NCBI RefSeq assembly: GCF_003334255.1
Contig: NZ_QOWU01000001.1
Strand: one strand, 5' to 3'
DNA length: 64,000 bases
From: Escherichia coli
GTDB lineage: Bacteria; Pseudomonadota; Gammaproteobacteria; Enterobacterales; Enterobacteriaceae
The translations under genes were made by a program, and so were the position numbers. The notes beneath the pieces were generated by a model. The model searched no databases. It had not been told where the DNA came from and saw nothing but the letters and a program-made list of their open reading frames with translations. Positions 53,096-55,360 of the stretch are shown piece after piece; position 1 is the stretch's first letter, and the number at the start of each line of letters is the position of its first letter.

Positions 53096-53129
53096 GACTT
53101 GCTCAGATTGCTGACAACGTGCGCGTTGT

Positions 53130-53232
53130 TCATGCCGGATGCGGCGTGAACGCCTTATCCAGCCTACAAAATTGTGCAAAATCAATGGATTGCACAGCTA
53201 GCGTAGGCCTGATAAGCGTAGCGCATCAGGCA
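53130..53232. repeat. REP/BIME cluster between convergent gcd and cueO
   Basis: CATGCCGGATGCGGCGTGAACGCCTTATCCAGCCTAC and inverted GTAGGCCTGATAAGCGTAGCGCATCAGGCA fit the REP consensus. Confidence 0.65.
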
Positions 53233-53296
53233 GATTTGCGTTTGTCATCAGTTTAATGCCCGGAGAGATCCGGGCATATTTCCGAATACGGTCTTT

Positions 53297-54847
53297 TTAT
53301 ACCGTAAACCCTAACATCATCCCCGTATCTTCATGCTCCAGCAGATGGCAGTGCGCCATATAAGCATGTTCTTTCGGTGCATCGTGATTAAACTTCACCA
53401 GCACTTCGCTGACATTACCTTCTACCTTAACGGTATCTTTCCAGCCCGCGCGATGAGCCGCTGGCGGTTTGCCATTTTCTGACAAGATACGGAACTGCGT
53501 GCCGTGGATATGGAACGGATGCAGCATCATGTCGCCCACGCCAGAGATAACCCAACGTTCGTATTGCCCTTTCGCCGCCGCAAACATCGGCTTGTTCATA
53601 TCAAACGCCTGACCGTTGATTTTGTTGGCATGGTGGAAATCGAACTTCCCGCCGTGGTTCATATGATTCATATTGCCGTGCCCCATATGGCCCATCATCT
53701 GGCTGTGATCCATCCCGGCCATCGCCTGATCGCCATATTTCTCCATTAGCATCTGCATCCCCATCATATCGAGCATCGGGTCCATAGAGAGTTGCAGCTT
53801 GCGTACCGTCAGCCCTTCCAGCGAAGGTAACGCAGGCAGGCTACTTAATGTGTCTGGCAAAGCACCGGAGGCACTAATAGCAATCGGCTGAATCCGCATT
53901 ACCGGATGAGGCTTATCAAACGGCGCAATCGCCATCCCCATCTGGCTGACCGGCAGCGTCACCAGGTCAAAGGGTTTGTTATCGTTAACCTCCACCAGCA
54001 CTTCAAAACGCTCGCCCATCAGCACCGGCAGTTCGCTCACCTTCACTGGTTCAGGTAGCAGACCACCGTCGCTGGCAATCACATACAGCGGGCGATTGTC
54101 GCTGGTGGCGAAATTGAGCGAACGGGCATTACAGCCATTGAGCAAACGCAGGCGCAGCCAACCACGCGGGGCAGCGTGTTGCGGGTAGATTGCACCGTTG
54201 GTCAGCAACGTATCGCCAAACCAGCCCACGGCGGCGGTCATCACATCCAGTTGATAATCAATCTGCCCGTCGGCGCTAAATTTCTTATCCTGAACGATCA
54301 CCGGAACATCATCGATACCCCACTGTTTTGGCAGCATTAATTTCAGGATCTCGTCATCTTCAATCACCACCAGCCCAGCCAGCCCCATCGCCACCTGTCG
54401 CCCGGTTTTGCCGTGCTGATGCGGATGGAACCAGCAGGTAGCGGCAGGTTGATCAACGTTCAACGTCACCGAGCGCTTGCCACCTGGCGGAATAATTCCC
54501 TGCGGGCCGCCGTCGACTTCACCCGGTACTTCCAGCCCGTGCCAGTGCAACGTTGTCTCTTCCGTCAGTTGGTTGTAGATATCAACCGTTACCGCTTTGC
54601 CGCGCTGTAATTTCACCGCCGGCCCCAGCAGATTGCCGTTATAGCCCCAGGTAGTTGCAGTTTTCCCGCCAAAGGTGGACTGGCCTGCGCCAATAGTTAA
54701 CTGAATGCGATTACGGGCATCGGTCGTGAGCAAATCAGGGATCGGTAACGTTGGGCGTTCTGCCGCAAATACTGCGCGGCTCCACAGCGGCAAAGCCGAA
54801 GCCACACCCAGCGCGACGGAATATTTTAAGAAATCACGACGTTGCAT
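53297..54847 (-). CDS. cueO: Multicopper oxidase CueO (periplasmic cuprous oxidase), Tat-secreted
   Basis: ORF-track entry 53297..54886 contains [28 protein letters not shown] (twin-arginine signal), HWHG/HPH copper-site motifs and a Met-rich insert; trimmed to 516 aa. Confidence 0.95.
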
Positions 54848-54900
54848 AGTTATTTCCTTATTCTTAAGCAGGCGAAACAAAATCAAACGTTGAGCATAGT

Positions 54901-54919
54901 CCTTCCCCTTACGGGAAGG
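54901..54919. promoter_or_regulatory. Candidate CueR (MerR-family) operator in the cueO promoter
   Basis: Perfect dyad CCTTCC-N7-GGAAGG (CCTTCCCCTTACGGGAAGG) 54 nt upstream of the cueO ATG, matching the CueR-box consensus. Confidence 0.55.
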
Positions 54920-55012
54920 TCAAGCCGCAGACACAATTTAATCGACAATAATGGTCGTCGCCTCGCTCGCAGTGTGCTAACGTTTATCTTCTTTAAGCCC
55001 CTGGTAGAAGCA

Positions 55013-55360
55013 ATGAAGACGTTTTTCAGAACAGTGTTATTCGGCAGCCTGATGGCCGTCTGCGCAAACAGTTACGCGCTCAGCGAGTCTGAAGCCGAAG
55101 ATATGGCCGATTTAACGGCAGTTTTTGTCTTTCTGAAGAACGATTGTGGTTACCAGAACTTACCTAACGGGCAAATTCGTCGCGCACTGGTCTTTTTCGC
55201 TCAGCAAAACCAGTGGGACCTCAGTAATTACGACACCTTCGACATGAAAGCCCTCGGTGAAGACAGCTACCGCGATCTCAGCGGCATTGGCATTCCCGTC
55301 GCTAAAAAATGCAAAGCCCTGGCCCGCGATTCCTTAAGCCTGCTTGCCTACGTCAAATAA
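55013..55360 (+). CDS. yacC: Small secreted protein YacC (function unknown)
   Basis: ORF-track entry 54842..55360 contains MKTFFRTVLFGSLMAVCANSYALSESEAEDMADLTAVF... with signal peptide; trimmed to 115 aa. Confidence 0.8.
   Translation: MKTFFRTVLFGSLMAVCANSYALSESEAEDMADLTAVFVFLKNDCGYQNLPNGQIRRALVFFAQQNQWDLSNYDTFDMKALGEDSYRDLSGIGIPVAKKCKALARDSLSLLAYVK

Follow-up and report, generated by a model that had tools for sequence, protein, structure and literature searches.

The 165-bp region between the divergent genes cueO and yacC of Escherichia coli contains a perfect inverted repeat, and this raises two questions: whether the repeat is an operator through which the copper sensor CueR controls cueO, and whether yacC shares that control. 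The window analyzed here is a stretch of 64,000 nucleotides of E. coli DNA. The preliminary description of this DNA read the repeat as a CueR operator of the MerR family and proposed that yacC could come under the same copper-dependent control.

The identities of the two genes are clear, and their coding sequences are placed as follows.

53297..54847, minus strand: cueO, a multicopper oxidase of 516 amino acids with a twin-arginine signal (MQRRDFLK...), assigned from the open reading frame, NF008205 and the RefSeq annotation
55013..55360, plus strand: yacC, a signal-peptide-bearing PulS/OutS pilotin-like protein of 115 amino acids

The region between them spans 54848..55012, exactly the segment that had been described as the cueO/yacC control region. 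The cueO ATG lies at 54847 on the minus strand, with 53 nt between it and the repeat, and the yacC ATG lies at 55013, with 93 nt between; the earlier figures of 54 and about 95 nt were right to within a base or two. A longer cueO reading frame initiated at TTG was rejected as a mechanical artefact, and the ATG at 54847 was taken as the start. The same locus is found throughout the species. Of 5426 complete E. coli genomes, 5425 contain a match to a 701-bp query around the repeat, and in them the flanking genes are annotated as multicopper oxidase CueO and YacC family pilotin-like protein. In K-12 MG1655, the 801 bp at 136500..137300 are found exactly in the window, and the repeat falls between b0122 (yacC) and b0123 (cueO). 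Among plasmid-labelled records of complete E. coli assemblies there are ten matches to the cueO-yacC region (54600..55300) and three to the 45-bp promoter core.

CueO scores 983 bits against the NCBIfam equivalog NF008205 (cutoff 525). Its Met-rich insert, placed earlier at about 53640..53790, comprises residues 353-403 (window 53639..53791) and has 14 Met and 5 His in 51 residues, against 15 Met in the other 465 residues of the protein. YacC scores 197 bits against NF037975 (cutoff 80), has a weak PulS/OutS pilotin domain (PF09691, E 3e-9), and finds OutS and PulS among its distant structural matches. It is named a putative lipoprotein in the K-12 annotation and pilotin-like in RefSeq. The N-terminus (MKTFFRTVLFGSLMAVCANSYA/LSE; window 55013..55081) lacks a canonical lipobox (MAVC is found) and has an A-x-A-like signal peptidase I site, so YacC may be a soluble periplasmic protein rather than a lipoprotein.

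The inverted repeat is unique in the window. The exact pattern CCTTCC-N7-GGAAGG has a single match, at the position first reported, and none of 100 dinucleotide-preserving shuffles yields any. When one mismatch is allowed, there is still a single site, and 10 of the 100 shuffles yield at least one. The arms can be extended to 7 bp (CCTTCCC-N5-GGGAAGG). The gene for the regulator, cueR, is absent from the window.

The repeat lies inside a promoter that faces cueO. Read on the minus strand, the promoter region is CTTGACCTTCCCGTAAGGGGAAGGACTATGCT, and it contains the following elements.

54918..54923, minus strand: -35 hexamer of cueO, TTGACC, overlapping the outer 2 bp of the repeat
54899..54917, minus strand: overlong 19-bp spacer, holding most of the repeat
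54901..54919, no strand assigned: inverted repeat CCTTCC-N7-GGAAGG (CCTTCCCCTTACGGGAAGG), read as the CueR operator, with its centre at 54910; K-12 137011..137029
54893..54898, minus strand: -10 hexamer of cueO, TATGCT, read from the sequence
54848..54886, minus strand: predicted 5' untranslated region of cueO, about 39 nt, with the start placed at about 54886, K-12 about 137044, from the position of the -10
54854..54859, minus strand: putative Shine-Dalgarno sequence of cueO, AAGGAA

The repeat is thus located between the -35 and -10 of cueO. An overlong spacer that holds a dyad is the hallmark of MerR-family promoters, and such promoters normally have 19-20 bp between the hexamers; the spacer of cueO has 19. 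A scan of 54700..55150 for standard promoters, with spacers of 16-18 bp, found none. It misses the cueO promoter because of the 19-bp spacer, as expected for a promoter of the MerR type. The gene downstream belongs to copper homeostasis, as shown by the equivalog match, the Tat signal and the Met-rich insert of CueO.

The closest counterpart of the cueO promoter within E. coli is that of copA. In MG1655 the copA promoter reads TTGACC-TTCCCCTTGCTGGAAGGTT-TAACCT. It shares with cueO the -35 hexamer TTGACC, the 19-bp spacer, the arms CCTTCC and GGAAGG in the same register, and regulation by CueR, and the cueO repeat matches the pattern of the validated copA CueR box, CCTTCC-N7-GGAAGG, exactly. 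The two promoters differ in the central 7 bp, which on the coding strand are CCTTGCT in copA and CGTAAGG in cueO, and in the -10, which is TAACCT in copA and TATGCT in cueO. Unlike cueO, copA does not have a close divergent neighbor, the start of glsA being about 260 bp away. The founding example of the mechanism is the mer operator of Tn21/Tn501, at which MerR acts on PmerT and PmerR. There too the dyad sits in a 19-bp spacer, the activator reshapes the DNA upon metal binding, and the genes are divergent. However, the divergent mer promoter, PmerR, shares DNA with its operator and for that reason comes under repression by MerR, while the predicted yacC promoter does not overlap the repeat and lies about 70-80 bp from its center.

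The overlong spacer is common to all metal-sensing MerR promoters, and on layout alone the site could belong to a MerR paralogue such as ZntR or SoxR, or to some other regulator. The half-sites do not differ from those at copA, which is the other accepted target of CueR; the gene downstream encodes a copper oxidase; and the literature assigns cueO to CueR. There is hence almost no chance that another regulator is the cognate one, and nothing was found against the CueR assignment in E. coli.

The cueO site belongs to the pair of classical CueR operators in E. coli K-12. Activation of cueO by CueR and copper was published as early as 2000, and papers and regulatory databases have covered the site from that year on. 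Binding of CueR, dependence on copper and distortion of the DNA are taken here from published work. CueR is a Cu(I)- and Ag(I)-sensing protein of the MerR family that activates exactly two genes, copA and cueO (PMC9396075, citing Outten 2000, Stoyanov 2001, Yamamoto and Ishihama 2005, and Philips 2015), and crystal and cryo-EM structures back activation through allosteric distortion of the DNA (PMC9396075). A cueO-lacZ fusion is induced by copper (PMC12510620), and in RNA-seq of MG1655 at 2 mM Cu, cueO was up 44-fold and copA 115-fold (bioRxiv 10.64898/2026.03.12.711415). A comparative study of 2006 named the "yacC-yacK divergon" and described in it a candidate CueR site whose spacer is 19 nt long (PMC1526738). 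The same study described the CueR cassette of Salmonella cueO (cuiD) (PMC1526738). The Salmonella cassette is the orthologous site. In S. enterica subsp. arizonae it reads TTGACC-19 bp-TAAGCT with the repeat CCTTCC-N7-GGAGGG, and it is unlike the window in having one arm mismatch (GGAGGG) and a longer gap of 200 bp to yacC.

Comparison of the site across the Enterobacteriaceae shows which of its features are kept. One genome per species with CueO gave 80 loci. In 78 of these species yacC is divergent from cueO, with a gap of 140-200 bp, and the counts that follow refer to the window and the 78 other species with divergent yacC (n=79 sequences). The -35 of cueO is TTGACC in 77 sequences and TTGACG in two, and none of the 79 departs from a spacer of 19 bp. 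For the -10, 40 sequences have TATGCT and 37 have TAAGCT, with TATCCT and TAGGCT found once each. Within the repeat, no variation is seen in the pairs at ±9, ±6 and ±4, and of 42 distinct sequences 41 keep complementary bases at ±8. At ±7, at ±5 and around the center (±1 to ±3), the bases differ between sequences and frequently fail to pair. Perfect arms are present in just 13 sequences. A single mismatch, typically giving GGAGGG, is seen in 47, two mismatches in 12 and three in 7, and CCTTCC-N7-GGAGGG is the form carried by most genera. The conserved property is the geometry of the promoter, with its 19-bp spacer, and four positions of the dyad. The perfect palindrome is a detail of the lineage, which corrects the emphasis that the preliminary description had placed on it. 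The TTCC/TTATT block adjoining the cueO ATG is also conserved. Of 5423 E. coli records, 5260 have the 45-bp promoter core without a single difference.

The box is present at the orthologous loci of 79 of the 80 species, namely the 78 that could be aligned and one further locus (L044) on a short contig that has no yacC match, yet carries the CueR box. In the remaining species, Intestinirhabdus alba (L075, 2240..2500), cueO does not have yacC upstream and the upstream DNA is G+C-rich and repeat-like; no recognizable CueR box or promoter with a 19-bp spacer was found there within 260 nt of cueO.

The same data bear on the proposal that the palindrome works through a hairpin in RNA or DNA (a terminator, an attenuator or a REP-like element, for example) and not as a protein operator. 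A G+C-rich stem of 7 bp with a loop of 5 nt could form. On the other hand, no run of T follows the palindrome, and a terminator scan of 54700..55150 found none. An Rfam scan of 54600..55200 yielded no family, only a meaningless sub-threshold viral match. Placed between the promoter hexamers of cueO and, on the other side, ahead of the predicted start of yacC, the palindrome would not be part of either transcript. Hairpin-type covariation was considered and rejected, since bases near the center frequently do not pair, while particular bases farther out never change. This pattern is consistent with base-specific recognition by a dimeric protein rather than with a hairpin, and the hairpin reading is extremely improbable.

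The explanation that best accounts for the whole is that the repeat is a CueR operator in a sigma-70 promoter of cueO, that Cu(I)-bound CueR switches cueO on, and that yacC stays outside the switch. This explanation is held with high confidence. The present analysis contributes the anatomy of the sequence, the identity of its layout with copA and its conservation. In this mechanism, the 19-bp spacer is about 2 bp too long, which puts the -35 and -10 out of phase and leaves the cueO promoter weak on its own. A CueR dimer would sit on the dyad within the spacer, and upon binding Cu(I), or also Ag(I) or Au(I), it would kink and undertwist the DNA. The distortion would realign the hexamers, allowing RNA polymerase to open the promoter and transcribe cueO. 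The product is exported by the Tat system to the periplasm, where this multicopper oxidase, with its Met-rich insert recruiting copper, oxidizes Cu(I) to Cu(II). The yacC gene would be transcribed in the opposite direction from its own promoter about 100 bp away. The assignment of the site to CueR and cueO, as first described, is upheld by the copA-identical arms, the 19-bp spacer, the conservation in Enterobacteriaceae and the published activation by CueR and copper.

The yacC gene appears to have a separate promoter, for which two conserved signals were found.

54975..54983, plus strand: predicted extended -10 of yacC, TGcTAACGT, with a predicted start at about 54990, K-12 about 136940, 7 nt past the -10
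54946..54960, plus strand: A/T-rich block followed by TCGTCG (CAATAATGGTCGTCG), conserved upstream of the yacC -10

The motif TGnTAAC(G/T)T is shared by all 79 sequences and keeps a distance of 28-29 nt upstream of the yacC ATG. It is predicted to be an extended -10 with C at -13 and to mark a separate, conserved promoter of yacC; like the start of cueO, that of yacC is predicted from the sequence. The C at -13 may favor sigma-S. Across species the upstream block takes the form AATAA(A/T)G..TCGTCG, and TCGTCG stands at a 17-bp spacing from the -10 in 32 of the 79 sequences. No consensus -35 is found among the conserved upstream signals, and the block with TCGTCG may represent an UP-like element with a weak -35. 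The stretch that separates the cueO -35 from this block (54920..54945) is about 10 bases longer in Escherichia than in most genera.

The position of the CueR site relative to this promoter bears on whether yacC shares copper control. Sharing could come about if CueR, bound upstream of the yacC promoter, acted on it from there, or indirectly through the negative supercoiling or polymerase crowding that strong induction of cueO, back-to-back with yacC, would cause. The near-universal divergence of the two genes across a short gap is in keeping with such an arrangement, as is the term "divergon" applied to the locus in the 2006 study (PMC1526738). In most genera, hardly any sequence separates the cueO -35 from the A/T-rich block upstream of yacC. 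Measured from the center of the dyad to the yacC -10, the distances fall mostly into classes of 58/59, 68-70 and 79 bp, about one helical turn apart, and such a spacing of about 10 bp would keep the helical phase. However, outliers at 55, 65, 103 and 114 bp break the phase, the classes may reflect just two or three insertion or deletion events, and the synteny of core genes is generally conserved in Enterobacteriaceae.

The geometry also argues against sharing. In the window, 68 bp separate the center of the dyad from the yacC -10 downstream of it. Relative to the predicted yacC start, the center is at about -80 in Escherichia and at about -70 in most genera, and the CueR box therefore falls outside the spacer of the yacC promoter as predicted. 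Activation by MerR-family proteins, which proceeds through a change in the shape of the spacer, is known only at promoters whose own spacer holds the site.

Expression data point in the same direction. In the MG1655 RNA-seq in which cueO rose 44-fold, yacC (b0122) appears on neither of the complete lists of genes raised 2-fold or more, the one for 2 mM Cu (487 genes) and the one for 8 mM Cu. Nor is it among those named of the 28 genes that Yamamoto and Ishihama found to be induced by copper, in a partial list that leaves "several additional genes" unnamed. One sheet of a coinage-metal RNA-seq supplement gives both yacC and cueO as non-significant, which is uninformative, since cueO itself was not induced there. 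When the literature was searched for links of yacC to copper, CueR or RpoS, only the 2006 comparative paper was found to tie yacC to CueR. A search for CueR ChIP-exo data turned up only spurious text matches. The Reg-Seq preprint has yacC among its targets and reports no result for it, and its supplement makes no mention of the gene. In a proteomics table YacC falls alongside curli proteins, which is uninformative on copper.

Copper induction of yacC together with cueO is unsupported, because the CueR site lies outside the yacC promoter spacer and yacC is missing from the lists of induced genes. The suggestion that yacC shares copper control consequently lacks support, and sharing by either route is unlikely. 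A subtler version would have the two back-to-back promoters coupled, with CueR occupancy or the burst of cueO transcription tuning yacC modestly, by less than 2-fold or downwards. Such coupling, which would proceed through DNA bending, supercoiling or competition for upstream DNA, is likewise doubtful. Selection for it would explain the near-universal divergence and the spacing classes of about 10 bp, but these hints are weak. The preferred reading remains that CueR switches cueO and leaves yacC to its own promoter.

Mobile and repeated elements are found around the locus. In E. coli HB101 (NZ_CP184671.1), a 768-bp IS1A is inserted at the ribosome-binding site and start codon of yacC (55007..55015), with a 9-bp target duplication, GAAGCAATG; the insertion cuts yacC off from the intergenic control region. 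On the other side of cueO, the convergent gap between gcd and cueO (53096..53296) contains two REP-like palindromic units (GCCGGATGCGGCGTGAACGCCTTATCC... and ...GGCCTGATAAGCGTAGCGCATCAGGC) and a G+C hairpin, GCCCGGAGAGATCCGGGC, which is probably a terminator region shared by the two genes. In E. coli 503025 (locus L001, 1..1653), an IS3-family element and IS621 lie directly downstream of cueO, where the window has gcd.

For cueO, these results are a rediscovery of a classical, already known CueR operator, which is real, conserved and ordinary. They add little beyond confirmation, and the comparative result is of minor value. If it were true that yacC responds to copper or CueR, this would be the first functional clue for a y-gene, but the available expression data argue against induction of yacC by copper. 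What the analysis offers for this uncharacterized pilotin-like gene is the prediction of a separate, conserved extended -10 promoter.
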